This document shows positions 1-61,970 of a DNA stretch of 64,000 nucleotides, in pieces (position 1 is the first letter of the stretch; each line of letters opens with the position of its first letter). This DNA is from a phage, in NCBI GenBank assembly GCA_012411765.1, contig GCA_012411765.1_3031.1; one strand, given 5' to 3'. The notes under the pieces are model-generated. The model was not told the origin of the DNA and ran no database searches. It saw nothing but the letters and a program-made list of their open reading frames with translations. The position numbers and the translations under genes were made by a program.

Positions 1-24
1 AAAAAAAATTTTTGAAATAAAAAA

Positions 25-44
25 GGGAGAGCCGAGGCTCTCCC
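25..44 (-). terminator. GC hairpin (GGGAGAGCC/GGCTCTCCC) followed by T-run on minus strand
   Basis: Inverted repeat read directly; lies downstream of gene 52 and the 49-aa ORF; rc strand continues TTTTTTATTT. Confidence 0.45.
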
Positions 45-49
45 TAAAA

Positions 50-2753: not shown

Positions 2754-2972
2754 TCATTTTACACCATTCCAAATTGTTTCAACTACGGATTTTAAACCAT
2801 TTTGATGAATATCCATTCCGACTACTGCCATCAAATAGATTCCAACTACAACTGAACCTAAGGCAAAAATCAGCATGAAAATGAATAAAGCCGGAAAAAT
2901 ATTATCGAAAAACCATTCAATAAATGTAAAAGCACTGCGTTTACGCTTCATATTTTCCTCACATAAATCCAA
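2754..2972 (-). CDS. small membrane protein (72 aa)
   Basis: Long hydrophobic stretch; minus-strand array. Confidence 0.4.
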   Translation of the reverse strand: MDLCEENMKRKRSAFTFIEWFFDNIFPALFIFMLIFALGSVVVGIYLMAVVGMDIHQNGLKSVVETIWNGVK

Positions 2973-3072
2973 AGTAAACGTTTAATACATCAATCATTAA
3001 AACGATTGGGAATATACTCAAAACTATTAGTATTATAACTACATTCCATATAGCTTTAACAATCTTTTTCAT
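2959..3072 (-). CDS. small membrane protein (37 aa); ORF-track N-terminal extension is translated promoter/leader
   Basis: Internal Met MKKIVKAIWNVVIILIVLS...; upstream part of track ORF 2959..3207 encodes the repeated leader motif. Confidence 0.35.
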   Translation of the reverse strand: MKKIVKAIWNVVIILIVLSIFPIVLMIDVLNVYFGFM

Positions 3073-3315
3073 TTTCTGTTCCTCCGTAGTTGATAGGGTA
3101 ATAGTACCACGGAAGAACAGTCTTGTAAACAACTTTTTTAAAAATATTCGTAATAAATGTGAATACCAACTACTACCGCTGAAACCTGTGCAACCCACCA
3201 CGCACAAGCAATAAGTACAGAATTCAAAATTTTCATAATAACCTCATCACAAAAGTAAATGTTAAACAAATTAATGGAATACTAATTAACCAAACAAAAC
3301 ACCACCATAATGAAC

Positions 3316-3579
3316 TCATAGTTCAATCTCAGCGATTTTCATTTCATTATTGTTAATAGCATTTTTAAGACTATCCGAAAGAATTACATTCCAGTGGTCA
3401 TTCATATGACCATTAACTAAGCGTGTAATTTCTTCGGGAGTTGAAAAATAAGGCGTATCAGACTCCCAATGCGATAATCCTAAGCGAGTATAAATCATAC
3501 CTTCATCATCGCTAGAATATTCAACTGACACAAACTCATCAGTTATTTTATGCTTAGCATAATAAAATTTAAATTTCAT
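3316..3579 (-). CDS. hypothetical protein (87 aa from internal Met of track ORF 3316..3678)
   Basis: Track ORF N-terminus (GTIQLSTDTDLE) is the translated promoter-leader repeat and overlaps denB 3' end. Confidence 0.45.
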   Translation of the reverse strand: MKFKFYYAKHKITDEFVSVEYSSDDEGMIYTRLGLSHWESDTPYFSTPEEITRLVNGHMNDHWNVILSDSLKNAINNNEMKIAEIEL

Positions 3580-3659
3580 TTTACTCTCCAAATCAGTATC
3601 AGTTGATAGTTGTATAGTACCACGGTCCTTGTGGTATGTAAACTGTTTTGTGAAATTTT

Positions 3660-4217
3660 TTAAATGGAAAGATACCATCCGTTGTAGTTGCTTTTTCTTA
3701 CAACCTTACGAAGGTCTTCTCTGTCACCGATGAACTTCGGAGTGTACTGGATGACACCTGGGTGAATTTCTTTAGTGTTGAATATAATTATACAGTCAGC
3801 GACTTGGTGATTCAGAATGGGCCCTAGATTTATTCCAGAACCATATGGATACTCTCCGCTGCATCCTGTTGTTACCGAAATCCAACGTGAGTCAGTTTGA
3901 TGTGTCTTAACTTCTACACGAAGCCCGCAGTATTTTGGATGTGCTAAAACATCCCATGCATATGTGTACGGATCATCGACATCTTCTTGGCCTTTATTGA
4001 CATATCCGCTTAGCCAATCTGCCACAAAAAACTCTGCGTACACAGCGATACGGCATCTTTCGATAACTTCTGCCTTATCCTGATTTGGGTTTTGTTTTAA
4101 AGAGTATCTTGCAGTATCAGCAATTTTGACCTTCATTTCACTAGTCAAGTCACTGTTCGATAGGGTAAATGTCGGAATCTGAAATAGTCTCTGTAACCCA
4201 GGATTCGTTTTCTGCAT
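3660..4217 (-). CDS. denB: endonuclease IV (DenB-like)
   Basis: 185 aa, matches recalled T4 DenB length; position between rIIB and ndd. Confidence 0.7.
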   Translation of the reverse strand: MQKTNPGLQRLFQIPTFTLSNSDLTSEMKVKIADTARYSLKQNPNQDKAEVIERCRIAVYAEFFVADWLSGYVNKGQEDVDDPYTYAWDVLAHPKYCGLRVEVKTHQTDSRWISVTTGCSGEYPYGSGINLGPILNHQVADCIIIFNTKEIHPGVIQYTPKFIGDREDLRKVVRKSNYNGWYLSI

Positions 4218-7896: not shown

Positions 7897-7926
7897 ATTA
7901 TACCACATCCTTGTGGTAAAGTAAAC
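7897..7926 (-). promoter_or_regulatory. early promoter (-35 GTTTAC, 18-bp spacer with TACCAC/GTGGTA palindrome, -10 TATAAT)
   Basis: Read on minus strand: GTTTAC tttaccacaaggatgtgg TATAAT, upstream of rIIA.1/rIIA. Confidence 0.6.
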
Positions 7927-9746
7927 TACTGGCTCATCCATTCTTTACGAAGGTCAGCATTATCTCCCATGAGCATTTCAAAAAGCTCTTTCCAGTTCTC
8001 AGGAAGTTTAACAACATCATATACTGGGTTTTGAATCATCTCACGATATTCAGATTTTTCCAAAGAGCCAAGTCCTTTAATATAACGGATGCTATGTTTA
8101 GGTAGAGCATCTTTGGCACTCTCATATTCAGCGACTGTATAAAACCATTCTTGTTTTTTACCGACCTGAGCGATGATTACAGGAGTTTTGACAAAGCGAA
8201 TTCGTCCTTGCTCAAACAATTCTGGCCAATTACTAAAAAATCCGAGCAGAGAAGGATAAATGCTTCCTAGACCATCATGGTCAGCATCAGTCATAATAGC
8301 AATATTATGATAATTCAAGTTTTCAGCTTTTTCACCAAGAACTAATCCAGTGATTGCGCAAATATCAAACAGTTCTTTGTTTTTAAGCATATCAGCATAT
8401 GACATACCCCAACTGTTGAGAACTTTACCACGCAATGGATAACCACCATGAAGTTCTTTATTACGAACATCAATAAGATACCCGATAGCAGAATCACCCT
8501 CAGTCAAGAAAAGAGTAGTGTCAGCATCTTTACCACAAAGATTCGCTTTGATATGTTTATGAACCTTAGCTTTAGAAGCCTTTTTAGCTGCTTTAGTTTC
8601 TGCTGCTTTTTCTGCCGCCAATTTACGAGCCAAAGCAGCTTCGATAATCGGCATTAGAATTGCTTCATTATTTAGAATAGCGCGTGAAATCTTTTTAGCA
8701 TCAAGCTGAATATGACTACGAATTTCGCCAAATGGAGAAGTCAAACGCTCTTTAGTTTGAGAATCAAATCGCATGTTTTTCATATCACGGACAAACATAA
8801 CGATAGTCAAACATTCTTTAACGCGTGCTTTAGTCACATCAATTTTGAACTTACGTTTGATTTGTGGAATAAGGTCTTCACAAATATCATCCATAACACA
8901 GTCAATGTGATGGCCACCATTCTTAGTGTGGATGTTATTCACATAAGTTAATTGACGAAATCCATCCGGTGAACGACCAACCGCAATAGAACAATTTTCT
9001 TGTTCTTGAACGATAGCATGCTCATCATATTGGCGTGCATATTTCTTAAAATTGCCCTGAACCTTTTTACCATTAAAGGTAAATTGAATATCAGGATAAA
9101 CTACTGCAAGTGTCTGGAGACGATCTAGTGTAATGTCAAGATAAACTTGGGACAGCTCATTAGTTTCAAATGACATAAAATCAGGAATGAAAGTAACACG
9201 AGTTCCTTTCCATTTTCCAGGAATATCTTCCCATGATTTATTTTCCATGCCATTTGAACAACGAACTACAATATTATTTTGACCATCACCAGTTTCACCG
9301 ACAAACATCACAGAAAAAATGTTTGTCAAACTAGAACCAACACCATTCATACCGCCAGTGACGCGTTCTTTGTCATCACCGAAGTTACCACCTGCTTTTG
9401 GAATAGTCCATGCAGCAACAGGACCAGGAATTTCTTCACCGGTAGGTGTTTTAACCATTGCCTGCGGAATACCACGACCGTTATCTTCAACTGTTACTTG
9501 ATTGTTTTTAATAGTAACATTAATTTTATTTGCGAATTTAAACTTAGTACGAATACCTTCATCTACTGAGTTATCGATAATTTCATCAATAAGCTTAACA
9601 AGACCAGGTACATATTGAACACTTTCCCATTTACCAAACAGAAAGCGCTCATGCATTTCATTAGCAGAAGAGCCAATGTACATGCCGCTACGCTTTTTGA
9701 TATGTTCAATATCGCTCAGAATTTTAATTTCATTCTTAATCATCAC
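7926..9746 (-). CDS. 39: DNA topoisomerase II large subunit (GyrB-like ATPase + toprim), uninterrupted
   Basis: 606-aa continuous ORF; no gene 60 split or bypass. Confidence 0.95.
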   Translation of the reverse strand: MMIKNEIKILSDIEHIKKRSGMYIGSSANEMHERFLFGKWESVQYVPGLVKLIDEIIDNSVDEGIRTKFKFANKINVTIKNNQVTVEDNGRGIPQAMVKTPTGEEIPGPVAAWTIPKAGGNFGDDKERVTGGMNGVGSSLTNIFSVMFVGETGDGQNNIVVRCSNGMENKSWEDIPGKWKGTRVTFIPDFMSFETNELSQVYLDITLDRLQTLAVVYPDIQFTFNGKKVQGNFKKYARQYDEHAIVQEQENCSIAVGRSPDGFRQLTYVNNIHTKNGGHHIDCVMDDICEDLIPQIKRKFKIDVTKARVKECLTIVMFVRDMKNMRFDSQTKERLTSPFGEIRSHIQLDAKKISRAILNNEAILMPIIEAALARKLAAEKAAETKAAKKASKAKVHKHIKANLCGKDADTTLFLTEGDSAIGYLIDVRNKELHGGYPLRGKVLNSWGMSYADMLKNKELFDICAITGLVLGEKAENLNYHNIAIMTDADHDGLGSIYPSLLGFFSNWPELFEQGRIRFVKTPVIIAQVGKKQEWFYTVAEYESAKDALPKHSIRYIKGLGSLEKSEYREMIQNPVYDVVKLPENWKELFEMLMGDNADLRKEWMSQ

Positions 9747-11285: not shown

Positions 11286-11567
11286 TTAATTGAACAGTGG
11301 AGCGATGCGTTTCAGAAGAGTAGCAGCACCTTTGGCGAATTTTACATCATGAAAAACAGTTTCTTCTTCCGTTACAACTCGAACTTTAATATTTTCACAA
11401 TCCCAATTTTTGCGAACAATCTTCAAAAGCTGCAGTAAATCTTTACATTCAGCAATATCGATAACACATCCACGAGAATCTTCCATTATCGCACGATAAC
11501 CATAAGCCATACCATAATCGTTGAAAGATTGCTCGATGATAATTAAGTTTTCCATTTCATTCTCCAA
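11286..11567 (-). CDS. hypothetical protein (93 aa)
   Basis: ORF preceded by early promoter-like element with 11-bp inverted repeat at 11575..11625. Confidence 0.45.
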   Translation of the reverse strand: MENEMENLIIIEQSFNDYGMAYGYRAIMEDSRGCVIDIAECKDLLQLLKIVRKNWDCENIKVRVVTEEETVFHDVKFAKGAATLLKRIAPLFN

Positions 11568-11653
11568 GTTGTTTTCTGTATCAGTAGTTGATATTGATAT
11601 AGTACCATAATCAACTACTGATGTATATAGTTTTATGAAAAAAATTTTAAACT

Positions 11654-12145
11654 TTATGCATAGCGAGCTTTGCTGTAGTGTTTAATCCAACTTTCAGGAA
11701 TGACTTTGTATGTTCCTAAAAATACTGCGTTGTATAACTTAACGCCATCTTCTACCCATTGATCAGTAATGTATGCACACATAGCGCGAGTACGGTTAAC
11801 AACACCTTCCTCACCTTCAGTAAATTCAAACTCATAAGGAGCAACGAACTTGATAGCTTGACCGAGTTTCCACTTAAAGTCTACACCTACATGCGAAGTA
11901 TCAATCGTTTCAATTCCTTTAGCGGGAACAGCTTTCAAAAATGCAGATTCAAGAAATTTCGCGCGAACATAACCAAACTGAGGTTTAGACTTTCCATCTT
12001 TAGGAATGATACGCACTTTTACTTCAGAATCTTCATCTTTAACGCCGTGTTTAAGCTGAATGCTTACAATTTCGACCAATTTTCCTGCTGCTTTAGAGCG
12101 GGATTTATCAGATACACGAGCTAATTCACCAATATTAATAATCAT
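11654..12145 (-). CDS. motB: MotB-like protein
   Basis: 163 aa; position between cef and dexA as recalled for T4 motB; paralogous to next ORF. Confidence 0.45.
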   Translation of the reverse strand: MIINIGELARVSDKSRSKAAGKLVEIVSIQLKHGVKDEDSEVKVRIIPKDGKSKPQFGYVRAKFLESAFLKAVPAKGIETIDTSHVGVDFKWKLGQAIKFVAPYEFEFTEGEEGVVNRTRAMCAYITDQWVEDGVKLYNAVFLGTYKVIPESWIKHYSKARYA

Positions 12146-12221
12146 AGTTATCTCTCACTTGTTAAAAAGATTTTATACTCCACGGGACCATTATACTCTG
12201 GTCCCAAGAGTTTGTAAACTA

Positions 12222-21914: not shown

Positions 21915-23254
<1,340 letters not shown>

Positions 23255-23353
23255 TATATCATCCTCAGCAATTTATTTTATAATACCATAACAAGCTGAG
23301 AAAGTAAACAAATTTGTGAAATTTGCGATAAATATTAATTTAAAGGAGGACAT

Positions 23354-25912: not shown

Positions 25913-25970
25913 AACAATCTCCTCATTTAACCAACAAGACTACTATACCATAGTCTTGTCAGCTTGTAAA

Positions 25971-27398
25971 CTAAAATTTTAATTCATTTGCCAAAGCATC
26001 TAACTGAGCTCGAGTGGATTCATTTCTTTGATAGCGATTCTGCTCAGCTTGTATCTGTTGTGAACCTGCTACCTCACTCACTTCAGTTGGAGTAGAATCT
26101 TGTTCAATTTCTACCCATTTCTGATTTCCTTTTTGAACACCCATCAAAAACTTATTCCATTTATTCTTATCACCATATCGTGATTTGATTTGCTTAATGA
26201 GTTGTTGTTCAGCAGCTGCTAGCTCCTCGGTTTCAATGACCGCAAGCATAAAATCGGCTGTTGCTGGAAGACCAGCAGATTCTGCAATATCGCTCATGTT
26301 AACATCGGAAGAATCCCAAGCTTGCTTACCAACCTGTGCTGCAGTCCAAAGAACAGTTTCGGTTTCAACAGCCAGAGCACGCAATTCCTCTGCGATAGCT
26401 TTAACAGTTGTGTAACTATTTTCTGAATAAACTCTAATGCGGCAAGATTTACAAATACCTAGATAGTCGACAATAATGATTGTTGGAACAAAATTCTTTT
26501 TGAGCTTCAATTCATTCAAGAGAGACCTGAATGTATTAGCATCTGCTCCACCAGTAGGATACTGTTTAACGATTAAACGTCCAAGAGTAGATTTCTCACG
26601 CCATTTTTCCATTTTTCCTTTATACTCAGCGTAAGAAATATGCCCATCATCAATATCATCAAGAGAAACATCAAGCATATTAGCATCAATACGTTTAGCG
26701 CAGACTTCTTCTGCCATTTCCATGGAAATGTAAAGAACATTATGTCCGAGCTGTAAATAATCTGCTGCCAATGAACACAGACCTAATGACTTACCAACGT
26801 TAACGCCAGCCATTAAAACGTTCAGTGTTCCAGTCTCAGCTCCGCCTTTAGTAATTTTGTTTAGAATTCTGAGTTTAAATGGAACCTTACGAGCTTTATT
26901 CATATAAGATAGCCAACGTGCTTCATAGTCATCCATCCAATCATGACCAACGTAACTATCAAATGAAATTGATAATGCCTGCCGCATGATGTCAGGAATA
27001 GCACCAACATCCGGCATTTTCTTATTTCGTTTTTCCGGAGGAAGCTCAGCATTAGTTTGAATTTCGATTATTTTAGACGTAGCATTAAACATCGCCCTTT
27101 GCTGAACATATTTTTCTGTTTCTTTTATTAACCAGCTGTGGTCTTCCGGAGAATCAGCCAGTTTTGAAATAAGTGTTTTTACACCAGAATATTCTGTTTC
27201 AGTAAATGAACTATTTTCTAATGCAACATTTAACGCATTAATAGATGGAACGCTATGATACTCATTGACATGAGATTTAATTAATTTGAATGTATTTTTA
27301 GCTGGACCACTTTCAAAATATTCTGAATCCATATATGGCCAAACTTTTGAAAAATAAGCTTGATCAAATATGAGATGAGAAAGAATAATTTCTACCAC
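25971..27398 (-). CDS. 41: replicative DNA helicase (DnaB-like)
   Basis: 475 aa; Walker A GVNVGKS; synteny. Confidence 0.95.
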   Translation of the reverse strand: MVEIILSHLIFDQAYFSKVWPYMDSEYFESGPAKNTFKLIKSHVNEYHSVPSINALNVALENSSFTETEYSGVKTLISKLADSPEDHSWLIKETEKYVQQRAMFNATSKIIEIQTNAELPPEKRNKKMPDVGAIPDIMRQALSISFDSYVGHDWMDDYEARWLSYMNKARKVPFKLRILNKITKGGAETGTLNVLMAGVNVGKSLGLCSLAADYLQLGHNVLYISMEMAEEVCAKRIDANMLDVSLDDIDDGHISYAEYKGKMEKWREKSTLGRLIVKQYPTGGADANTFRSLLNELKLKKNFVPTIIIVDYLGICKSCRIRVYSENSYTTVKAIAEELRALAVETETVLWTAAQVGKQAWDSSDVNMSDIAESAGLPATADFMLAVIETEELAAAEQQLIKQIKSRYGDKNKWNKFLMGVQKGNQKWVEIEQDSTPTEVSEVAGSQQIQAEQNRYQRNESTRAQLDALANELKF

Positions 27399-27770: not shown

Positions 27771-28926
27771 TTAACTGTTCGAGGTCAGTTTCTAAATCAG
27801 CTGCTGATTTACTTTTACTTTCTGGAGATTTAAATTTTTCAACCTTTGAGTTAATCAATTCATCAACTTCAGCTTCAACAATTTCATTACTATCAATAGC
27901 ACCTAACTGATAAGCACGTTTAATAGCATCTCGGAATGGTTGATGCTTAAATAAAGGACCCCAGAATGTAGTGCAGTTGGTATCTTTTGCACGCCAAGAT
28001 TTTTCTTCGCGAATCATCTCGCCGGTTTCTTCGTCAAGAAATTCACGAGCATACCAGCCATTTTTAGGTTTTACCACGAATCCTAATTCTAGAGCCATAT
28101 CTAACAATCCAGAATAAGGATCGATACCACCGTCAAATTTAACATCAATAAAGAATTTACTTTTTTCTTTAACGGTACGAGATTTTTCTACATTTAGAAC
28201 AAATTGATACCCCTGAAGATCAGAACCATCTTTAATCTGACGTTTACCGATAATGAATACGGTATCAGCCGAATACATTACGCCTGTACCACCTGTCATT
28301 ACGGTTTTACTAAACATTTCAATTGTTTCAATTGTATGGTTAACCGCAACACATGGAATATTTTTAATGCTAAAATAAGGAGTAACAATACGGAATAATG
28401 ACTTCAGTGATTTAGCACGAGTCATATCTGCCACAGATTTTTCATTCAAGGCATCTTCCGTTTCTTTCTTAGAAGCCATATTACCGATTGAGTCGATGAA
28501 TACAATAACCTTTTCACCACGCTCAATAGCTTCAAGCTGATTCACCATATCAATTTTCAGCTGTTCAACTGACTGAATTGGTGTATGAATTACTCGTTCC
28601 GGGTCAACTCCCATGGATCGCAAATAAGCTGGAGTAATACCAAATTCGCTATCATAGAATAGACAAACCGCGTCAGGATATTTGTTCAAATATGCCGCAA
28701 CCATAGTCAAAGACATATTTGATTTAAAGTGTTTAGAAGGCCCTGCGAAAATAGTTAAACCAGACTGCATACCGCCATCAATCGCGCCAGAAATAGCAAT
28801 ATTAAGCATTGGGATTTTTGTACGGATTACATCCTTTTCATTAAAGAATTTAGATGTAGTCAGTTCAGCAGTCATTTTAGAAGTGGAAGCTTTAATCAAA
28901 CGGGATTTTAAATCTGCAATAGACAT
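27745..28926 (-). CDS. uvsX: UvsX recombinase (RecA-like)
   Basis: 393 aa; Walker A GPSKHFKS; sequence matches recalled T4 UvsX. Confidence 0.95.
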   Translation of the reverse strand: MSIADLKSRLIKASTSKMTAELTTSKFFNEKDVIRTKIPMLNIAISGAIDGGMQSGLTIFAGPSKHFKSNMSLTMVAAYLNKYPDAVCLFYDSEFGITPAYLRSMGVDPERVIHTPIQSVEQLKIDMVNQLEAIERGEKVIVFIDSIGNMASKKETEDALNEKSVADMTRAKSLKSLFRIVTPYFSIKNIPCVAVNHTIETIEMFSKTVMTGGTGVMYSADTVFIIGKRQIKDGSDLQGYQFVLNVEKSRTVKEKSKFFIDVKFDGGIDPYSGLLDMALELGFVVKPKNGWYAREFLDEETGEMIREEKSWRAKDTNCTTFWGPLFKHQPFRDAIKRAYQLGAIDSNEIVEAEVDELINSKVEKFKSPESKSKSAADLETDLEQLSDMEEFNE

Positions 28927-29003
28927 TCATTTTTTCCATAGGCATCATTATATTTTCCTCACTGGTTAAAGATAGAGTAATTATAACACAATAAATTTAG
29001 GCA

Positions 29004-29852
29004 TTAATCAACTGCTATTGGATGAATAGCATTAAACTTATGAAATGCTTCTGATTTTTCTTTACGCGAAACACACATGCGAAGAACCTTTAGTGGTTCA
29101 TCTTCTTCACCCAACGATTTTCGTTTTTCAATATTAGAAGTTTTCCAACGAGCTTGCTCTGGAAACTCTCTATTGATTTGCTCAAGCGCTCTATTATGTT
29201 TAGAATTACTACGAATTGAACTACATCCGCCAGGAGCTTGTGCTTTTCCAGATACAACTAGATATTTGAACAAGGCCAAATGCGGATAACCTTGATTAAT
29301 TAAATTGAGAAATGCATACATATCTTCGCATAAATCAATTTTTCCATACCCAATTTGTTCTGTAGTAAGTTTTCCGAGGTCATACCATGTATTTGTGAAT
29401 CCATATGAATTTTCACGATAATTACCCCAAGATGAAGTAATTTTAAAAATAGGTAGACGAGCATGGCCATGATAATACCCACAATCCATGGCATCCTCAA
29501 CATATTGAATCAATTCATAGAACTGTTCACGAGTCAATTGATTGACTTTATCCACACAACGACGATCATCTCTTTTTCGCATTGAACTCATACGAATAGT
29601 AGTATCATCGTCAATCATCCAGATTCGTTGACCTGCATACATATCAGTAATTGCTTTACGAGTACCGGCAATTCCGTTTACATCATCAGGAATAGTTATA
29701 ATTTTAGCTCTAGACCCATAGGCATCATAATAAGCTTTTTCTTCGTGTTCACGCACTACAATATGCGGTTCATAATCAGTCGGAAACATATCAAGGGCAG
29801 AAACTGCCCCGACACGCTGATAACTTGGAATTACGAATTGAATCATTTCCAC
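29004..29852 (-). CDS. DxD glycosyltransferase (GT-A-like), in the locus where T4 has beta-glucosyltransferase
   Basis: 282 aa; motif IWMIDDDTT; does not resemble recalled T4 Bgt; consistent with T2/T6-type beta-glucosyl-HMC-alpha-glucosyltransferase. Confidence 0.5.
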   Translation of the reverse strand: MEMIQFVIPSYQRVGAVSALDMFPTDYEPHIVVREHEEKAYYDAYGSRAKIITIPDDVNGIAGTRKAITDMYAGQRIWMIDDDTTIRMSSMRKRDDRRCVDKVNQLTREQFYELIQYVEDAMDCGYYHGHARLPIFKITSSWGNYRENSYGFTNTWYDLGKLTTEQIGYGKIDLCEDMYAFLNLINQGYPHLALFKYLVVSGKAQAPGGCSSIRSNSKHNRALEQINREFPEQARWKTSNIEKRKSLGEEDEPLKVLRMCVSRKEKSEAFHKFNAIHPIAVD

Positions 29853-30583
29853 TCACCGTTATAATCTTTTTTCACAATATGAGTTTCGCCAGTATTCCAC
29901 CAATGATCAACCAAGTAAAAATGACGAGAATATACATGAAGACTTCCAACATTCCATATAATAGAACCTGCTTTATACTGACGAGTTGAATCGCCTGCAT
30001 TCAAATCAGATACTAATTTATCTAGTACGTATTTTTGCCATGCATAGTCATTACGGAATCCGAAGACCACGTCATTTGAGCGCATGCTTACTACTGCATT
30101 GACTTTCTTATCACGAATCAGGTACTGTACTGTATTAGTACACATGAAATCTGACATACCATCTTTATTGTAGTCAAATTGCATGGATGGACGAGTATAA
30201 ATCATGATACCACGTCGAGAATCAGGATTTTGACCAAGTTCAGCTAAACACATATCATACTGGGCATAGTTATCTTCTGACCAAATAGCCCAACCATAAT
30301 TCGAGTTAATTTCGCCTTTAGAAGATGCTACCTGCTGCCAAATCTTTGGTGTTTCACCTGGAATATCTTTAACAAACAAGCTCTTAGATTTATACCATTC
30401 AAGTTCACGCTGAATGTATTCATCATTAAGAGCGCCAAAAATAAACGGTTCATCTGCTACAAATGATGCGCCAATAATTTCAATAGTTTTAACACCAGTT
30501 TTATCAACTACGAAATCTTTTTCTTTTAATGCAAGCCCCAAATGAAGACGGATTTCTTCAACTGTCATAGAGTCACTAATCAT
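29843..30583 (-). CDS. 42: dCMP hydroxymethylase
   Basis: 246 aa; sequence MISDSMTVEEIRLHLG... matches recalled T4 gp42. Confidence 0.85.
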   Translation of the reverse strand: MISDSMTVEEIRLHLGLALKEKDFVVDKTGVKTIEIIGASFVADEPFIFGALNDEYIQRELEWYKSKSLFVKDIPGETPKIWQQVASSKGEINSNYGWAIWSEDNYAQYDMCLAELGQNPDSRRGIMIYTRPSMQFDYNKDGMSDFMCTNTVQYLIRDKKVNAVVSMRSNDVVFGFRNDYAWQKYVLDKLVSDLNAGDSTRQYKAGSIIWNVGSLHVYSRHFYLVDHWWNTGETHIVKKDYNGEWK

Positions 30584-31386: not shown

Positions 31387-31635
31387 TCAAATGCAAGTAG
31401 TAATTACTCCAGTAGTGCTTATGCAGGTATTACCCATTTGCACACCTAAAGATCCATTTGTATTCACATGAAGATTATCATCAATTTTAACTGATATTTT
31501 ACCATTAGTGTGAATAACGGTGCTAGATTCAATCACAGGTTGAGTATCATTTTCAACACTAACAAATGGAACTGCTGCTAATGCAACTAAACACACTGCT
31601 AAGCAACCATAAACAATTTTCATTTTATTCTCCAA
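31387..31635 (-). CDS. small secreted protein (82 aa)
   Basis: N-terminal signal peptide; preceded by promoter-leader cassette. Confidence 0.45.
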   Translation of the reverse strand: MENKMKIVYGCLAVCLVALAAVPFVSVENDTQPVIESSTVIHTNGKISVKIDDNLHVNTNGSLGVQMGNTCISTTGVITTCI

Positions 31636-31687
31636 ATCCGTATTAGTTGATAGTTGTATAGTACCACAGAGGAACAGTCTTGTAAAC
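31625..31687 (-). promoter_or_regulatory. repeated promoter-leader cassette (early promoter GTTTAC/-10 TACTAT plus conserved leader)
   Basis: Near-identical copies at about 3581..3644, 56885..56935, 58318..58380 and a diverged copy at 3073..3135. Confidence 0.55.
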
Positions 31688-31775
31688 AGTTTTGTGAAAA
31701 ATTTTTTAGGGAATTCTAAAGGTCCAGAATCATCTGTTTTTCATAAGTATAGATTTATATTACTTGTATGAAAAA

Positions 31776-31791
31776 GGGACCCGGAGGTCCC
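31776..31791 (-). terminator. hairpin GGGACC-CGGA-GGTCCC downstream of gene 43
   Basis: Inverted repeat read directly. Confidence 0.45.
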
Positions 31792-31804
31792 TAGATTTAT
31801 TCTA

Positions 31805-45800: not shown

Positions 45801-46082
45801 AAATCATACGTTTGTTCCATTTAATCACAGTATAATGAACATCTAGATCATCGACTGCTGTAACAATAACGATATGTCCGTTAACACGATAATACTGGTC
45901 AATTTTAATCTCTTTATCAACCATATCAATTCCTCAAAGGTAATTCATATGTTAATAATACCACGGTTTGAACTTGTTGTAAACAACTTTGTGAAAAATA
46001 TTTTAGGGAATGATAAGAAAGGAACGATAGCTCAGAATGGTAATATACAGAATGTGAGAAAGAAAGGCCCAGAGGGCCCGTC

Positions 46083-47022: not shown

Positions 47023-47493
47023 TTAATCATGTGTCCACACCCCATCGGTATTTGACCAAAGTCGCTGATTATCTGATCCTCGCCACAGCTTTTTAGTCGG
47101 AAGATTTTTCTCATACTTCCCATCAATAATAACATCAACATATTTAAGCATTTCTAGTTGTTTAATATCTTCAAACTTATATCCTGTCCACAACCAAATG
47201 CTTTTATTGGGATAAAGATTTTTAATAGTTTGAACCACAGAGTGAATCACGTCTCTGTTATCAGGATAAAGAGGGTCACCTCCGGTTATAGTTAATCCTT
47301 CTATATAATCATTATTCAAACATTCAATCAATTGTTCTAGTGTTTCACCAGTAAATGGAATACCATTTCTAGCATTCCATGTTGATTTATTATAACACCC
47401 TTCGCATTTATGCAAACAACCTGTAACGAAAAGAACGGCCCTGCATCCAGGGCCATTCACAAAATCACAGGGATAAAATCTATCATAATTCAT
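47023..47493 (-). CDS. nrdG: anaerobic ribonucleotide reductase activating protein (radical SAM)
   Basis: 156 aa; CxxxCxxC cluster motif (CLHKCEGC). Confidence 0.9.
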   Translation of the reverse strand: MNYDRFYPCDFVNGPGCRAVLFVTGCLHKCEGCYNKSTWNARNGIPFTGETLEQLIECLNNDYIEGLTITGGDPLYPDNRDVIHSVVQTIKNLYPNKSIWLWTGYKFEDIKQLEMLKYVDVIIDGKYEKNLPTKKLWRGSDNQRLWSNTDGVWTHD

Positions 47494-49307
47494 TGGTGTT
47501 TAACCCTATGCATGATTTCTTTATTTTTACCGAGATTAAATCCGCGTTCGTTCGGATTTCCCAAATAACCACATGTTCTTCTTATTGTATTCATCTTTTT
47601 AGGATCAGTTTCTCCACAAATAGAACAAACAAATCCGTTTTCAGTAGGAGTCATTTCATGGGTACTTCCGCATGTAAAACATTTATCTACTGGCATATTA
47701 ACACCAAAATAATCTAAATGTTGTGCAGCATAATCCCATACGGCCTCAAGACCTTTTAGATTATTTTTCATATCAGGAAGTTCAACATAAGAAATGTGAC
47801 CACCTGTCGCAATGAAATGATATGGCGCTTCACGAGAAATCTTTTCAAACGGAGTAATATTTTCTTCTACTGAAACATGGAAACTGTTAGTGTACCAGCC
47901 TTTATCGGTAACATCTTTTACACTTCCATATTTTTCTGTATCGAGTTTACAGAAGCGATAACAAAGGTTTTCAGCAGGAGTAGAATATAAACTAAAAGCA
48001 AATCCGGTTATTTCGGTCCACTGTTTAAGATGAGCATTCATCTTAGTTAAAATTTCTTGTCCAATATCACGACCGACAAGAATATTCAATTCGTGAATAC
48101 CAATGTATCCTAGGGACACTGAACTTCTACCATTTTTAAATAACTCAATTATGTCGTCATCAGGTTTAAGACGAACCCCGAATGCACCTTCTTGGTAAAG
48201 AATAGGAGCAACAGTCGCTTTAACTCCTTTTAAGGAACTAATTCTACACATCAAAGCTTCAAAACACAAATCCATTCGTTCATTGAATAATTCAACAAAT
48301 TTCTGTTCATTGAACTGTGTTCCAATATAAGAATCTAACGCAATGCGAGGAAGATTCAGTGTTACAACACCAAGATTATTACGTCCATCAAGAATTTCAT
48401 TGCCAGTCGAATCTTTCCATACGCTCAAGAAACTACGGCAACCCATTGGAGAAACAGGAACAGATGAACCAGTGATAGCTTTATTGTTCTTAGCTGAAAT
48501 AATATCAGGATACATCCTTTTGCTTGCACACTCTAGAGCAAGCTGCTTAATATCATAGTTCGGATCGTCTTTATAAAGATTAACACCTTCTTCAACGAAC
48601 ATAACAAGCTTAGGGAAAATAGGAGTTATCCCATCACGACCAAGACCTTTAATACGATTTTTCAGAATTGCTTTCTGAATCATTCGTTCAGTCCAGTCAG
48701 TTCCCGTACCAAATGTAATTGTTACAAAAGGAGTCTGTCCGTTTGAACTAAAGAGAGTATTTACTTCATATTCATAAGCTTGGAATGCATCGTATACGTC
48801 TTTTTCTGTTTTAGATTGAGCATAATTTAACGCATCAGCGATTTGCCATTTTTCTGCATCCTCAATATGTTTTGCATAGGTGCGTTTAACATAAGGAGAA
48901 AGTACTTTATCTACATTCGCAAAAGTCGTTCCGCCGTATTGGTGAGAAGCAACCTGTGCAGTAATTTGTGCCATAATTGCAGTAGCAACGCCAATTGATT
49001 TAGGAGTTTCAATCTGCGCATTACCTAGCTTAAATCCGTTTTCAAGCATTCCTTTTAAATCTACTAAACAGCAATTAGTAAATGGAAGAGCAGGGGAATA
49101 ATCAATATCATGGAAATGAATAATTCCGCTTTCATGCGCTTTCATAATAAAAGACGGGACCATATTTTTGGCAATGTGTTTAGACACAATACCAGCCATA
49201 AGGTCCCGTTGAGTTGGAAAAACACGAGAATCTTTATTAGCATTCTCGTTTAAAAGGTCTTTATTAGTTTTATGAATCAATCCTTCAATTTCTTTTTCAA
49301 TTGTCAT
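47490..49307 (-). CDS. nrdD: anaerobic ribonucleoside-triphosphate reductase, uninterrupted
   Basis: 605 aa continuous; C-terminal glycyl radical region and Cys cluster. Confidence 0.95.
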   Translation of the reverse strand: MTIEKEIEGLIHKTNKDLLNENANKDSRVFPTQRDLMAGIVSKHIAKNMVPSFIMKAHESGIIHFHDIDYSPALPFTNCCLVDLKGMLENGFKLGNAQIETPKSIGVATAIMAQITAQVASHQYGGTTFANVDKVLSPYVKRTYAKHIEDAEKWQIADALNYAQSKTEKDVYDAFQAYEYEVNTLFSSNGQTPFVTITFGTGTDWTERMIQKAILKNRIKGLGRDGITPIFPKLVMFVEEGVNLYKDDPNYDIKQLALECASKRMYPDIISAKNNKAITGSSVPVSPMGCRSFLSVWKDSTGNEILDGRNNLGVVTLNLPRIALDSYIGTQFNEQKFVELFNERMDLCFEALMCRISSLKGVKATVAPILYQEGAFGVRLKPDDDIIELFKNGRSSVSLGYIGIHELNILVGRDIGQEILTKMNAHLKQWTEITGFAFSLYSTPAENLCYRFCKLDTEKYGSVKDVTDKGWYTNSFHVSVEENITPFEKISREAPYHFIATGGHISYVELPDMKNNLKGLEAVWDYAAQHLDYFGVNMPVDKCFTCGSTHEMTPTENGFVCSICGETDPKKMNTIRRTCGYLGNPNERGFNLGKNKEIMHRVKHQ

Positions 49308-53913: not shown

Positions 53914-53942
53914 AATAATCTCCTCAGTAGAAAGTAAGAACA

Positions 53943-53971
53943 TTATACCACATCCTTGTGGCAAAGTAAAC
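53943..53971 (-). promoter_or_regulatory. early promoter (-35 GTTTAC, spacer palindrome, -10 TATAAT), near-duplicate of 7897..7926
   Basis: Sequence acattataccacatccttgtggcaaagtaaac read directly. Confidence 0.55.
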
Positions 53972-54990
53972 TAGTTCAGTGCATTTAGTGCATTGTTCAG
54001 TTTAGAACGTTGCTTCGTGAGATTTTTGACTTTTTCTTGAGCTTTTTCTAGCATCTTTTCAGCTTCTAGCACTTCATTTGTCGCTTTAACGAGTTCATCA
54101 TCTACTGCCTTGATAGACTTCTCAATCGCATCCGCGTGCCATTTTTCAACAGGTTTAAGACTCGGATTTTCAATAGGAAGAAAATTCACTTTATTGAATT
54201 TCCATGCATCTTTATTGCCTGAACTATACATCCAAAATTTAGGATCGTTTGATGAGTAATTAGATAAATTTAAGTTATCTTGCACTTCCTGCTTTTTCTC
54301 TTGCGGGACTTCGTCCTTTCTCAAAAAATCGTATTTAAATGAAACGATCATATCAAGTTCATATGTTGTTGTATGTTCCCAATTTCGCTCAAAACGAGGT
54401 AAAATCTTAGAATGAACAGCGGCAACAACATCCATATACTTAAATGCTTCTGTCAACTGCGATTTAAGGCATTCGCAAATTGAAAGAGAATTTTTTGTAT
54501 TAGGTTTAAAGCTAATTCGTGCAGTTCTGTTATTTTCTTTTAATGGTCTTACTTCCATCTGAAGAGTATAACCATCAAATTTCAGGTTCTTTAAGTTAAT
54601 GTCAGAACCTTTTAATCGACTAGCCGTTGACAAAATTTGCTTTAATTGTTTACGGAATAGAGCAATAAATCTCCATTCAATACGATAATGATTTGGATTG
54701 AAAAATCCAGATGATAAATCGACCTTACTCTGACCAACACCTTGAACAAATAGAGGATTTTTATAATCAATAGTTTTACAGAAATCGGTGAGCTGCTCAC
54801 GAGCAGTCATTTGTGTAATATACCCCGCTTTACTAAAATGACGTAACCATTCACTGCTATTCATATATTTAAAGTGAATATCACGATTAACTTTATCAGG
54901 GTCTAAATTATTTTGGCACAAAAATGTCATAACATCACGAGTATAGCTGGCATTACGAACCATATCTTCAATTTGAGAACGAGTTTTCAT
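53971..54990 (-). CDS. paralog family protein C (339 aa) with C-terminal coiled coil
   Basis: Start MKTRSQI; motif IEWRFIALFRKQLKQIL. Confidence 0.55.
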   Translation of the reverse strand: MKTRSQIEDMVRNASYTRDVMTFLCQNNLDPDKVNRDIHFKYMNSSEWLRHFSKAGYITQMTAREQLTDFCKTIDYKNPLFVQGVGQSKVDLSSGFFNPNHYRIEWRFIALFRKQLKQILSTASRLKGSDINLKNLKFDGYTLQMEVRPLKENNRTARISFKPNTKNSLSICECLKSQLTEAFKYMDVVAAVHSKILPRFERNWEHTTTYELDMIVSFKYDFLRKDEVPQEKKQEVQDNLNLSNYSSNDPKFWMYSSGNKDAWKFNKVNFLPIENPSLKPVEKWHADAIEKSIKAVDDELVKATNEVLEAEKMLEKAQEKVKNLTKQRSKLNNALNALN

Positions 54991-56356: not shown

Positions 56357-56884
56357 TTATGCGAGTACCGTCTTTAACCGTTCTTCAAACTTCCGAAGAG
56401 TATTTTGGCGTTCAGCTCTTTGCTTTTTGTAAGTTTCAATACGCTCTGAAATGAGAGTGTATCGTTCATTTACTGATTCTTTCATAAAATCAGGAATTTC
56501 ACGAGAAGCTTTAATCTCATCAAATTTATCAATAACAGCTTGCTCTTCAGCAATTAAGTTATCATACATTAAAATATCTTTCTTGATGAACTCAATATCT
56601 TCTTGAGTTACACGAGATAATTTAGATGCTTTATCCTTTTTGTACTGTTCGTTAGTATCACGAGACCAGTGTAATGTACGATTTTTATTCGTATTCTTGT
56701 AAATTTCTACAATACCGATCTCATCAATAATAACGATCCAATTCCAACAGGATTTGTAAATTTGTCCTCCATCAACAGTGATTTCACCTCCGATTGAGAT
56801 GTCATTAAAGAACTTGCTTTGCGCTTCAGATTTAAATTTACCATCATTGTAATTTACCAGGTTGAAAATATCTTTAGCGTTCAT
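56357..56884 (-). CDS. hypothetical protein (175 aa from internal Met)
   Basis: Track N-terminal extension is translated promoter-leader repeat; real start MNAKDIFNLV. Confidence 0.5.
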   Translation of the reverse strand: MNAKDIFNLVNYNDGKFKSEAQSKFFNDISIGGEITVDGGQIYKSCWNWIVIIDEIGIVEIYKNTNKNRTLHWSRDTNEQYKKDKASKLSRVTQEDIEFIKKDILMYDNLIAEEQAVIDKFDEIKASREIPDFMKESVNERYTLISERIETYKKQRAERQNTLRKFEERLKTVLA

Positions 56885-56935
56885 TTTGTATTCCTCCGTA
56901 GTTGATAGTTGTATAGTACCACAGAGGAACGGTCT
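56885..56935 (-). promoter_or_regulatory. promoter-leader cassette copy
   Basis: gtagttgatagttgtatagtaccacagaggaacggtcttgtaaac read directly. Confidence 0.5.
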
Positions 56936-56944
56936 TGTAAACAA

Positions 56945-57259
56945 CTAAAAGAAACTTCTTTCACAATTTTTTCCACTGAACCAGGCGCTCACTGCTTTCT
57001 TAGTCTCAGGAGCAGTGTTATCCATAAACCATTCAAAGGCAGCCTTTTTATGATTCTGGAGGGCTTCTCGGGCTTTAATCTGCTCACGGTCTATTAACAC
57101 TAACATATGAGCCTTTCTTGTCACCATGGGCTTCTTATGATTTTTTGAATACTCCCAATCATTTGTCCATCGCATTGTTGTTGCGAACTGAAATACTGCT
57201 TCTTTAATTTTAGTTTCGTAAATTTCACGAGCCTTTGAGTATAACATCACTACCTCCAT
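56945..57259 (-). CDS. hypothetical protein (104 aa)
   Basis: ORF in array. Confidence 0.45.
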   Translation of the reverse strand: MEVVMLYSKAREIYETKIKEAVFQFATTMRWTNDWEYSKNHKKPMVTRKAHMLVLIDREQIKAREALQNHKKAAFEWFMDNTAPETKKAVSAWFSGKNCERSFF

Positions 57260-57348: not shown

Positions 57349-58317
57349 TTATTTCAGAAGAGTAACCTCAGCAATTTCTTCCCAACCGTTTTTGTCGGTC
57401 ATAATAAAGTCAGCAAGATAAAGTGCAGTACGCAGTGAAACATTGCGTAAACGGTTAACATTGACTTTCATCCATGATAATGCTTTATAAGTTTCTTCAT
57501 CAGAAAGACCGCGCTTTTGCATCATGTCGGTTGAAAGAATAACATCTTCAACCCTAACCATAATTTCTTCATTAGTGTGAACACCCAAATCCAAATAAAC
57601 TGAGCGGGACACTAATGCTTGTAAATGTGGAGCAAGTTTAGTACCACGGTCTAATTCGCGGTCAATATCAACGTTTGTAATAAAAACAATCGTTCCTTTA
57701 AATTCAAACTCACGGTCAATGCCTTTTTCTTCTAAGTAAGAAGATGCAGTGCTCCAGCAGACTTTACGGGTCTCTCCAGTGTCCAGAGCAGCTTTCAGAA
57801 GATTAAGAATGTCCATATCAGAGAAAACATCCACATCATCAATCAAAAGGACAGAATTCTCTTCACGATTATTCCAAAGCTGCTCATAAAGACCGATACC
57901 AGAGATTTTACCATTAATGCTTTTATACTCAATGTATCCAATATCATTTGCTTTATTTAAAGCTTTATCTAAAGAATACGTTTTACCAATACCTGCTGCT
58001 CCCGAGATAATTAATGAACGAATGTTTCCGTTAATAATACCATTCGTCATCATTCCCATAACATTAAATCTTTTATTAATGCGGGTTTTCATATCTTCAT
58101 ACGATTCTTTAACTTCTTCAACTTTTACACCATCATATGAAATGTCTGATTTGTAAACCCAAACACCGCGACGTTTACCGTCAATTTCAACAAAAACTTT
58201 ACCATCTCCTTGCGCATCTACCGGAGCATTATCTGGGAACCATTCGCCTAAGAGCTCAAAAGTTCCAGAGATTTCTTTACCGAAGTAGATACCCTTATTG
58301 ATAGTTACAGTTTTCAT
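57349..58317 (-). CDS. P-loop (AAA-like) ATPase, about 322 aa
   Basis: Walker A GAAGIGKT, Walker B LLIDDVD; start MKTVTINKG after promoter-leader cassette. Confidence 0.6.
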   Translation of the reverse strand: MKTVTINKGIYFGKEISGTFELLGEWFPDNAPVDAQGDGKVFVEIDGKRRGVWVYKSDISYDGVKVEEVKESYEDMKTRINKRFNVMGMMTNGIINGNIRSLIISGAAGIGKTYSLDKALNKANDIGYIEYKSINGKISGIGLYEQLWNNREENSVLLIDDVDVFSDMDILNLLKAALDTGETRKVCWSTASSYLEEKGIDREFEFKGTIVFITNVDIDRELDRGTKLAPHLQALVSRSVYLDLGVHTNEEIMVRVEDVILSTDMMQKRGLSDEETYKALSWMKVNVNRLRNVSLRTALYLADFIMTDKNGWEEIAEVTLLK

Positions 58318-58380
58318 TTTATTCTCCAAATCCGTATCAGTTGATAGTTGTATAGTACCATAAAGCTTTATGCTTGTAAA
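58318..58380 (-). promoter_or_regulatory. promoter-leader cassette copy
   Basis: Near-identical to 31625..31687. Confidence 0.5.
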
Positions 58381-58412
58381 CCGTTTTGTGAAAAAATTTT
58401 TGAAATAAAAAA

Positions 58413-58430
58413 GGGAGCCCGAAGGCTCCC
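58413..58430 (-). terminator. hairpin GGGAGCC-CGAA-GGCTCCC followed by T-run (minus strand)
   Basis: Inverted repeat immediately downstream of the nucleotidyltransferase-fold ORF. Confidence 0.5.
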
Positions 58431-58432
58431 TA

Positions 58433-59446: not shown

Positions 59447-59904
59447 TCAGCCTTATATTCAATAACAGGACATACTTTAGCTTTACGAGCTTTTAAAAAT
59501 TCAACGATAATCGATTTCTTGGGTTGAATAGGAGGTAAACCTTTATACGCCCTATCAATATTTTCTACGTGTAAAGCATAATCCTTTTTCCATTTATAAT
59601 CTTTATATTTTTCACGCAAATGTGCAGGAATAACAAATGAACCGATAATAAGTAAAACAACCAAAAGCGCAAGTATAAATGCCGATGGAAGAAGAGTCCA
59701 TAAACTACCGAAAATAAGCCAACGTTGTAGGCTTTCTGCACAAATAATTGTTAGCCCTACGAGTATAGCACATCCAAAAATAGAAACGAAAAATGCAGGA
59801 ATGGCAATAGACCAAAAATATGCGCATAGTGTCTTAGGTCGTTGCCATTCATCGTTAAACAATTTGAATAATTTATAATGCCAAGAGTTTTCATTAATAA
59901 TCAT
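59443..59904 (-). CDS. membrane protein (153 aa, multiple TM segments)
   Basis: Hydrophobic segments read from translation. Confidence 0.5.
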   Translation of the reverse strand: MIINENSWHYKLFKLFNDEWQRPKTLCAYFWSIAIPAFFVSIFGCAILVGLTIICAESLQRWLIFGSLWTLLPSAFILALLVVLLIIGSFVIPAHLREKYKDYKWKKDYALHVENIDRAYKGLPPIQPKKSIIVEFLKARKAKVCPVIEYKAE

Positions 59905-59906
59905 AA

Positions 59907-60428
59907 TTATCCTTTCATTGAAGGCGTAACGGTTGTTAAATACTTAATCATAGCTTCAGCTTCTGATTTTGATAATGAAATTTCTCCATTGTTTTGACGA
60001 ATAGAAATAAAATCCGGATGACGGTCACCACCAGCTTTTAAAACACACATATAAGTATCAGTTTCACCTTCAATATTTGAAATGATTGAAGCAGTTCCGC
60101 ATGAATGTGGTTTTTGATAAATCAATACAGCTTTTCTTCCGCCATTTGACTGCTCATAGGCTTTTAATACATCAAACAAATCAGTTCTTTTATCGATAGC
60201 TAAAATGTTATTTTCATCTTCAATGTTAAATCCTTCGGATACTTTATAAAGTGTTACCCATAAATCACCAATGTCAATAACAGCATTTACTTTTCCACGG
60301 CTTTCAAGAGTATGACAAATTTTCTTGATTTCGTCATAACTCATTTTAATAATATCATCTCCTTGACTAAGGAAGATGTCATTTTCAAATTCAACACGAA
60401 TTAAACCACTTCCACTTGAAATAAACAT
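59907..60428 (-). CDS. hypothetical protein (173 aa), paralog of next ORF
   Basis: Shared motifs GFNIEDEN versus GFNIESES and C-terminal YLTTVTPSMKG versus YLDSVIPTMISK. Confidence 0.45.
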   Translation of the reverse strand: MFISSGSGLIRVEFENDIFLSQGDDIIKMSYDEIKKICHTLESRGKVNAVIDIGDLWVTLYKVSEGFNIEDENNILAIDKRTDLFDVLKAYEQSNGGRKAVLIYQKPHSCGTASIISNIEGETDTYMCVLKAGGDRHPDFISIRQNNGEISLSKSEAEAMIKYLTTVTPSMKG

Positions 60429-60980: not shown

Positions 60981-61307
60981 TACATACTCCTCTGAATCAT
61001 ATCAATAATGTTGTTCACCAGATTATAAGTAAACATTGGGTAATTATATTGAATCATCACATACACAACAAACAAAACTTTCATTCTCTTCTCCTTGGCA
61101 GTTGACAAGATTACTATACCATAACCTTGCCAACTTGTAAACCATTAAATGACGTTTTCGATAAAATTCTGAAGCTTTGTATGAGCATCAACCATGATTT
61201 TCATTTCTTCCTTTGCGAAAGCTGTACCTCTTTCCCGAGCAGAATACTCATAGTCAGAAACTGCATTAGCATATTCTTCAATTAGCTTCATTAAAAACAT
61301 CTGCTTT

Positions 61308-61723: not shown

Positions 61724-61920
61724 GCCATGTGAGTTGCAACTTCATCACACATATTATAACGTTTCTTAAGAAGTTCTACAAGTTCTTCACTAGTAACTTC
61801 ATCCATGTCGACGAAAAAATCACCATTAATGATGACGTAGATATTTCCTTCTTGATTAAGTGCTTCAATTTTCATGATGTTCTCCTCTTTATCCGATGGT
61901 TGTATAGTACCACAGCTCAA
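61687..61920 (-). CDS. hypothetical protein (77 aa)
   Basis: ORF after hairpin-promoter cassette. Confidence 0.35.
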
Positions 61921-61949
61921 ACGGAAAGTAAACCGGTAAAATGAAAAAA

Positions 61950-61965
61950 GTCTCCCGAAGGAGAC
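61950..61965 (-). terminator. hairpin GTCTCC-CGAA-GGAGAC followed by T-run and GTTTAC promoter
   Basis: Inverted repeat read directly. Confidence 0.45.
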
Positions 61966-61970
61966 TAATG

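Follow-up and report, generated by a model that had tools for sequence, protein, structure and literature searches.

Repeated promoter-leader cassettes in a T4-like phage probably represent early promoters of the T4 class

The window (the whole 64-kb stretch of phage DNA that was analysed) holds a short repeated cassette, and we are quite confident that the copies are early promoters of the T4 class (Pe), each together with its 5'UTR; we include in this reading a leader targeted by RegB and a role of the copies as dispersed homology. For the window copies we observe the motif anatomy, orthology to T4 sites, a match to the RegB consensus, unstructured RNA and non-coding status. The first-pass annotation had proposed repeated promoter-leader cassettes here. 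That observation was correct and its interpretation is supported, since the copies have the form of sigma-70-type T4 early promoters, lie at orthologous sites and fit one published start coordinate, but the matter was already known: T4 early promoters, their extended consensus, the promoter-early-stem-loop (PeSL) cassettes of the T4/PST group and the RegB site GGAGAAUAAAA have all been published. The cassettes are useful in that they mark true start codons (five window ORFs are over-extended through them), delimit the immediate-early transcription units, and point to small accessory genes that differ among otherwise near-identical phages, which bears on the comparison of therapeutic T4-like phages. 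The conservation of a block from -6 to +7 is a modest, testable question that remains.

Genomic setting

The window is from a Tequatrovirus; over the 6-kb stretch around the focus copy (31624..31712), identity is 99.8% to Yersinia phage PYps55T and 97-99% to hundreds of Tequatrovirus (T4-like) genomes. On a BLAST map the window is collinear with T4 over a span that begins a short way upstream of motA, passes the T4 coordinate origin and ends at tk.2, and all of its early genes are on the minus strand. The regB gene is outside the 64 kb; in the nearest genome it lies ~3 kb past the window's right end, and the RegB encoded there is 99% identical to that of T4.

Several differences from T4 lie elsewhere in the window. 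The gene 39/60 topoisomerase subunit is undivided, without the mobA insertion or the gene 60 bypass segment, nrdD has no intron, and segA, segF, mobB, mobC and mobD are absent; a different glucosyltransferase replaces T4 segA and beta-gt. The stretches holding the gene 39/60, nrdD, homing-endonuclease and glucosyltransferase differences are 7926-9746, 47490-49307, 28915-29860 and 59448-60409.

The cassette family

The 33-nt leader, searched with no more than two mismatches, gave three matches, all on the minus strand (3580-3612, 31624-31656 and 58318-58350), where 100 shuffles gave an expectation of 0. A repeat finder returned a 95-nt unit in five copies of 68-100% identity (3056-3150, 3569-3663, 31613-31707, 56868-56962 and 58307-58401), confirming the earlier report of five minus-strand copies of a cassette of ~65 bp, among them a diverged one at 3073..3135. 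It also returned a 76-nt unit in seven copies, the extra ones at 11585-11660 and 45941-46016. The five copies, named here by the first base of their -35 element (Table 1), form a subfamily among ~20 minus-strand promoters of the form GTTTAC-N18-TAnnnT that a motif scan placed ahead of early genes; weaker relatives of the cassette lie at 61933, ~11628 and 45984, and the window's left edge truncates a sixth copy, the motA promoter.

Each copy consists of a UP tract, GTTTAC, an 18-nt spacer ending in TGG, TACTAT, a near-invariant block ACAACT|ATCAACT, the leader, GGAG, six nucleotides and the ATG. The element coordinates of all five thus agree with the order first described for them, of a minus-strand GTTTAC, a -10 region and a conserved leader ending at an ATG, and all five have TTTACA-N17-TACTAT with TG ahead of the -10 hexamer. 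Copies 3643, 31687 and 58381 share the UP tract aaaaattttttcacaaaac(t/g) and a long leader of 28 nt (...GATACGGATTTGGAGAATAAA). Copies 3130 and 56942 have a short leader of 22 nt (ATCAACTACGGAGGAA...); the UP region is a related A/T-rich tract at 3130 and is more diverged at 56942. The 5'UTRs of the five are thus 22-28 nt, and early promoter, SD and ATG are joined in one short conserved unit that is repeated in the genome, as in a PeSL.

Alignment of the copies, extended to nine paralogous sites, showed that conservation is uneven along the unit: mean pairwise identity is 37% over the first 14 spacer bases, 100% over the -10 hexamer and 86% over the 13 nt that follow it. Most of the Tequatrovirus genomes listed have the cassette at 7-11 places; over 643 records the places add up to 4500. 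When IMG/VR was scanned for the exact pattern, only 20 loci from about six genomes were recovered, which we used for the site table and which are too small a sample for population statistics. A full-text literature search with the motif strings returned no relevant paper.

The nrdC.10 homologue behind copy 58381 (57349-58317) has a full-length match to phrog_1250, of unknown function, and matches AAA/STAND NTPase domains weakly, below threshold (best E = 8e-5).

Table 1. Cassette copies, related promoters and associated features in the window.
Feature	Position	Strand	Elements and context
Focus copy (31687)	31624..31712	minus	-35 GTTTAC 31687-31682; -10 TACTAT 31663-31658; UP-like A/T tract 31688-31712; ACAACT discriminator; predicted +1 A 31651; 28-nt 5'UTR 31651-31624
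SD GGAGAATAAAA of focus copy, inside optimal 11-nt RegB/S1 site	31623..31633	minus	predicted cut G31632/A31631
78-aa small membrane-type ORF, phrog_4189	31387..31623	minus	gene behind focus copy
Terminator-like hairpin after gene 43	31775..31792	minus	7-bp stem, UCCG loop, T-run; 88 nt upstream of focus -35
Long-leader copy 58381	58318..58406	minus	-35 58381-58376; -10 58357-58352; predicted +1 58345
RegB-consensus SD of copy 58381	58327-58317	minus	ahead of nrdC.10 homologue (ORF 57349-58317)
UUCG-tetraloop terminator hairpin	58412..58431	minus	8-bp stem and T-run; 31 nt upstream of 58381 -35
Long-leader copy 3643	3580..3668	minus	-35 3643-3638; -10 3619-3614; predicted +1 3607; SD GGAGAGTAAAA, 1 mismatch to RegB consensus (3589-3579); ATG 3579; precedes 87-aa ORF (3316-3579, phrog_2390)
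Short-leader diverged copy 3130	3073..3155	minus	-35 3130-3125; -10 3106-3101; predicted +1 3094; ATG 3072; precedes ndd.4 homologue (2959-3072)
Short-leader copy 56942	56885..56967	minus	-35 56942-56937; -10 56918-56913; predicted +1 56906; ATG 56884; precedes nrdC.8 homologue (56357-56884)
Related early promoter of mobD.5 homologue	61876..61966	minus	GGTACTATACAACCATCGGAT; UUCG hairpin 61949-61966, 16 nt upstream
Related copy near cef	11556..11650	minus	degenerate -35 ATATAC; TGG-TACTAT; ATCAATATCAACT; 37-nt leader; SD GGAGAATGAAA; upstream of 89-aa ORF adjoining cef
motA early promoter, terminator hairpin (24-45) and UP tract	1..45	minus	-35 just past window's left edge; piece 89% identical to 58391-58428; window 3 = T4 163683, T4 motA -35 at 163673

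Correspondence with T4 early promoters

The five copies align with T4 sites ahead of ndd.6, ndd.4, imm.1, nrdC.8 and nrdC.10. The cassette core is also found in T4 ahead of motA, e.8, trna.4 and denV, and in part ahead of frd.3. The focus copy is orthologous to T4 27080-27014, that is, to Pe26.4 upstream of imm.1, and the T4 orthologue of copy 58381 has its -35 at 55384. A transcription study places the start of the region downstream of Pe26.4 at T4 map unit 27,044 (PMC6024815). In the T4 sequence, base 27,044 is the A of ATCAACT, seven bases past TACTAT, which is the predicted +1, and it is by homology to this base that we predict the start and the 28-nt 5'UTR of the focus copy. On the collinear map, and with the Pe26.4 start falling on the predicted +1, the focus copy is equivalent in position and orientation to a mapped T4 early promoter. 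In the record of Yersinia phage fPS-2 this site bears the label 'predicted early promoter', and the hairpin upstream of it is labelled 'terminator'.

Compared with the T4 promoters (Pe26.4 and those of ndd.6, ndd.4, nrdC.8, nrdC.10, motA, e.8, trna.4 and mobD.5), the window copies have collinear positions and the same UP tract; GTTTAC, TGG-TACTAT and ACAACTATCAACT are common to both, and the leaders are the same or nearly so. The differences are that the leader reads CAACT-GATAC or CAACT-AATAC in the window but CAACT-ACT-GATAC in T4, that the spacer at the imm.1 site differs slightly, and that three window promoters still drive genes (of 87, 78 and 89 aa) that are lost from T4. We considered the ACT indel in the leader (CAACT[ACT]GATAC) as evidence of concerted evolution and rejected it, as a tandem slip that varies within one site across phages.

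The promoter class, the one start-site coordinate and the RegB specificity are taken from the T4 literature, and the start sites and RegB cleavage assigned to the window copies are thus predictions by analogy with T4. We infer on the same footing that these particular copies would fire, and be cleaved, in this phage. For the T4 mobD.5 promoter, published work describes a start seen by primer extension and a transcript insensitive to RegB. A literature search found no genome-wide mapping of transcription start sites in T4. Among other candidates, DnaA, IHF and MotA boxes and the late-promoter consensus gave no convincing match in a comparison by eye.

A review describes T4 early promoters as composed of UP, -35, TGn and -10 elements, with extra consensus regions of unexplained role. 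In the window copies, unmodified host sigma-70 RNA polymerase would recognise the UP tract, GTTTAC(A), the TGn extended -10 and TACTAT, and transcription, beginning as soon as the cell is infected, would start from the A of ATCAACT, seven bases past the -10 hexamer. The product would begin with an unstructured, A/U-rich leader of 22-28 nt with a GGAG SD 6 nt ahead of the AUG, which would permit prompt translation of small early accessory genes. The cassette family would also act as dispersed homology, which could account for the mosaic copies described below.

The leader as RNA: coding, structure and a RegB site

A possible objection is that the leader is coding sequence for a shared N-terminal peptide, GTIQLSTDTDLENK. 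The leader frame is indeed open in all five copies, and the in-frame read-through GTIQLST(D/N)TDLE(N/S)KM (elsewhere given as GTIQLSTDTDLENKM) is present. However, the open frame passes through the -10 and -35 elements, and in copies 31687 and 56942 meets a stop just upstream of the -35; the sole start codon in the 31687 extension is a TTG just before the SD, GGAG is spaced 6 nt from the ATG, and in T4 this leader is fused to another gene. Alignments to PHROG profiles begin at residue 1 of the proteins defined by the ATG, and the deposited annotations of the nearest genome start there too, from which we conclude that the N-terminal ORF extensions are spurious; the copies are not confined to the frame of real proteins. 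Given the PHROG starts, the position of the SD and the frame running through promoter elements, we reject the coding reading, to which we give practically no credence. The first-pass annotation had likewise called the translation of the leader spurious, counting four lengthened ORFs where the ORF tool lengthens five. It is also very improbable that the leader is a structured cis-regulatory RNA (attenuator, thermosensor or riboswitch-like). The T4 variant does hold a short inverted repeat, UAUCA-ACUAC-UGAUA, but we dropped this hairpin because the window variants shorten or break the UAUCA/UGAUA repeat (CAACTGATAC, CAACTAATAC), and the short leaders are without it. Seven leaders were folded, with minimum free energies of 0 to -6.8 kcal/mol that do not improve on those of shuffled sequences (z -0.9 to +1.4), and no Rfam family reached the gathering threshold anywhere in the 64-kb window; we set the structured-RNA reading aside on these folds and the Rfam scan.

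The early-promoter reading gives the 3' end of the long leader a role of its own. The suggestion in the first-pass annotation of an RNA-processing control element fits, in that the long leader ends in the RegB/S1 consensus, from which cleavage would be predicted, and GGAGAATAAAA equals the published RegB/S1 optimum, so that the suggestion has a specific known candidate mechanism. In two papers on T4 (PMC1702504, PMC3014915), the RegB/S1 consensus is given as GG^AGRAYARAA, GGAGAATAAAA is reported to be needed for efficient cutting by RegB with ribosomal protein S1, nothing 5' of GGAG is said to be needed by RegB, and RegB is described as inactivating early mRNAs by cutting their SD. The 64 kb contain only two strict matches to GGAGRAYARAA, both in long leaders, and the exact optimum GGAGAAUAAAA stands at 31633-31623 and 58327-58317. 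In the focus copy the last A of GGAGAATAAAA is the first base of the ATG (31623-31621). The GGAG is left without stable pairing in the predicted folds, and lies 6 nt before an ATG and downstream of an early promoter.

These sites resemble those of T4 (PMC1702504, PMC3014915) in that GGAGAAUAAAA is identical to the T4 optimum and in being single-stranded (by prediction), intergenic and within the SD of an early transcript, with the AUG directly after; they differ in that the short-leader copies are off consensus and that cleavage, measured in T4, is predicted here. The short-leader SDs (GGAGGAAYA...) fit the consensus poorly, and such a deviation would fit published statements on T4 that the nrdC.8 GGAG is only moderately cut by RegB and denV is resistant (Durand et al. 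2006, PMC1702504; Uzan & Miller 2010, PMC3014915). In the long leaders, RegB with S1 would cut GG^AG and so destroy the ribosome-binding site, and the genes behind them would thus have only a brief immediate-early burst of expression; this cleavage is predicted from the consensus.

Of the perfect GGAGAATAAAA sites, eight in the T4 sequence that was examined (6567, 55330, 70633, 73524, 167029 and 129863, 130263, 146014), five are members of this single family of paralogous cassettes. Shared ancestry may therefore inflate the published RegB consensus in part, as it would rest to some extent on non-independent sequences.

Hairpins and likeness to PeSLs

Several copies had been placed just downstream of a CGAA-loop hairpin, as terminator-promoter modules. 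This holds for copy 58381, whose hairpin loop is CGAA on the plus strand and UUCG on the transcribed strand. Copy 31687 has a UCCG hairpin farther upstream (Table 1), and copies 3643, 3130 and 56942 have no hairpin within 100 nt upstream, so that the module applies to two of the five.

The likening of the cassettes to PeSLs was apt, and it had already been published for the PST/T4 pair. A PST/T4 PeSL is defined as an AT-rich region, TTTACW-N17-TAYWAT, an SD and a start codon, with a stem-loop just upstream, and these units lie near indels in hyperplastic regions that include the ndd.4/.5 locus (Comeau, Arbiol & Krisch 2014, PMC4122927). The window copies match this promoter as TTTACA-N17-TACTAT, and two of them (58381 and 31687) have the upstream stem-loop; the other three are unlike the definition in being without one nearby, and some copies have an inverted repeat in the spacer (3643 and 58381, with none at 3130 or 56942). 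The PeSLs of RB49/phi1 (Arbiol et al. 2010, PMC2839356) are likewise composites of promoter, stem-loop, SD and ATG. Often their stem-loop covers the -10 or is found in the spacer that separates it from the -35, an arrangement shared by copies 3643 and 58381. Crossovers in RB49/phi1 were located to the stretch from the -10 to the SD/ATG, and mini-circles formed between direct copies. These PeSLs differ from the window cassettes in their near-perfect TTGACA/TATAAT promoters, in belonging to another genus and in having no sequence homology to the window leader.

Gene content and mosaicism

PeSL cassettes have been proposed to mediate gene shuffling, a role that may apply here in part. The window cassettes are mosaic, with chimeric combinations of spacer, core and leader across seven genomes, and the extra genes of the window relative to T4 include three directly behind cassette leaders, of 87 aa (3316-3579), 78 aa (31387-31623) and 89 aa (11286-11555). 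Indels between the window and T4 fall at three cassette ATGs and at one entire promoter-gene module, although most breakpoints lie elsewhere. The 78-aa ORF (orf78) is absent from T4, where the leader joins imm.1 directly. At the ndd.6 and cef sites T4 has kept the leader, the ATG and 3' remnant mini-ORFs (MKIAEIEL* and MENSLKVLILF*); from these remnants of the 87-aa and 89-aa genes we conclude that T4 lost both by deletion between 5-8 nt start-codon repeats. The T4 sites corresponding to the three genes are at L004 46996-47030 and at L002 27006-27020 and 6500-6560. The 87-aa gene (orf87) is present in 426 phage records.

The module at 22782-23321 is also in the window and absent from T4; it comprises promoter 23309 and a 186-aa ORF (22694-23254), with an 8-nt direct repeat, ATCGCAAA, on either side. 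The imm.1 gene of RB69 is located between imm and 61.4, not after gene 43 (L027 19321-19747), and has the promoter-leader GTTTAC...TACTAT-CTTT-CTATCAACTAC. As imm.1 is displaced yet keeps its own promoter-leader, the two appear to have moved together.

Two further readings have to be weighed against these data, and both are compatible with some of them. One, itself compatible with promoter function, is that the units are conserved mainly as mobile recombination cassettes (PeSLs), such that ectopic recombination or gene conversion homogenises the copies and moves or deletes the genes between them; we hold this possible, though we lean against it. Exchange between copies would be seen in the spacer of the imm.1/orf78 site, which is e.8-type in two phages, identical to the nrdC.8-type in the window and another variant in T4, in the nrdC.8-type core at the ndd.4 site of one phage, and in the T4 frd.3 and nrdC.10 promoters, which share UP tract and spacer and have different leaders. 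Three gene presence/absence differences from T4 abut a cassette ATG; orf78 is found in 322 records, as against ~541 with the cassette at the imm.1/orf78 site; direct-repeat pairs lie 513 bp and 1439 bp apart, the geometry of the RB49/phi1 mini-circles; and the RB69 imm.1 has another genome position with its CTATCAACTAC promoter kept. Yet most sites keep their own site-specific spacer across seven genomes, which argues for vertical inheritance, and homogenisation alone would not leave a 37% spacer beside an 86% block of 13 nt. The indel junctions are microhomologies of 5-8 nt (ATGAAAAT, ATTATG, ATCGCAAA), of the same kind as at indels without a cassette (ATTATG, ATTAA, ATCGCAAA), and of the 19 breakpoints between window and T4 only ~4 adjoin an early promoter, while T4 homing-endonuclease genes or an intron are involved in many of the others. 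The mosaic cassettes and the indels agree with the PeSL model published for RB49/phi1 and PST/T4 (PMC2839356, PMC4122927), but the indication of a shuffling role is suggestive and not specific, since gene-sized indels outside cassettes rely on the same microhomology at the start codon. Rather than a dedicated mechanism, the cassettes appear to be one contributor to plasticity.

The other reading concerns the block ACAACT|ATCAACT, which would be a separate control element, of undefined role, in a subclass of early promoters; we think this rather unlikely. Its starting point is that the strong conservation of ACAACTATCAACT is explained neither by sigma-70 elements nor by the RegB site, the latter because no sequence 5' of GGAG is required by RegB. 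Paralogues with unrelated spacers share the block at 86% identity; it is unchanged at six sites in all seven genomes compared and is partly retained, as CTATCAACTAC, at the imm.1 promoter of RB69, which is of another genus. According to the review, moreover, stimulation by Alt does not map to the -35, TGn or -10 elements, and the extra consensus regions of early promoters are unexplained. The block could act in start-site choice or promoter escape, in the response to Alt/ModA-ADP-ribosylated polymerase or early shut-off, or in the stability of the RNA 5' end. Against a control element, the block is found only in a subset of early promoters, others in the window having unrelated sequence after the -10; no structure is predicted for it, and shared ancestry together with conversion could contribute to its conservation. 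We prefer to read the cassettes as T4-class early promoters with their leaders.

Inverted repeats and other elements near early promoters

Many early promoters of the window have an inverted repeat within the spacer or around the -10, which is the RB49-type PeSL layout and not the PST/T4 'stem-loop upstream'. In copy 3643 the spacer repeat is TACCAC..GTGGTA (3614-3643), and in copy 58381 it is a 14-nt palindrome, CATAAAGCTTTATG (58352-58381). Promoters 7926 and 53971 (7897-7928 and 53942-53973), a pair 97% identical, carry TACCACAAGGATGTGGTA; promoters 25971 and 61142 (25934-25971 and 61105-61142) have a 9-bp stem enclosing the -10; and the early promoter at 12182-12219 is also among those with an inverted repeat. 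Between the gene 43 terminator and the focus promoter, at 31740-31770 on the minus strand, lies a TATAAATC motif that is conserved in T4; it matches seven of the eight positions of TATAAATA, the T4 late-promoter box.
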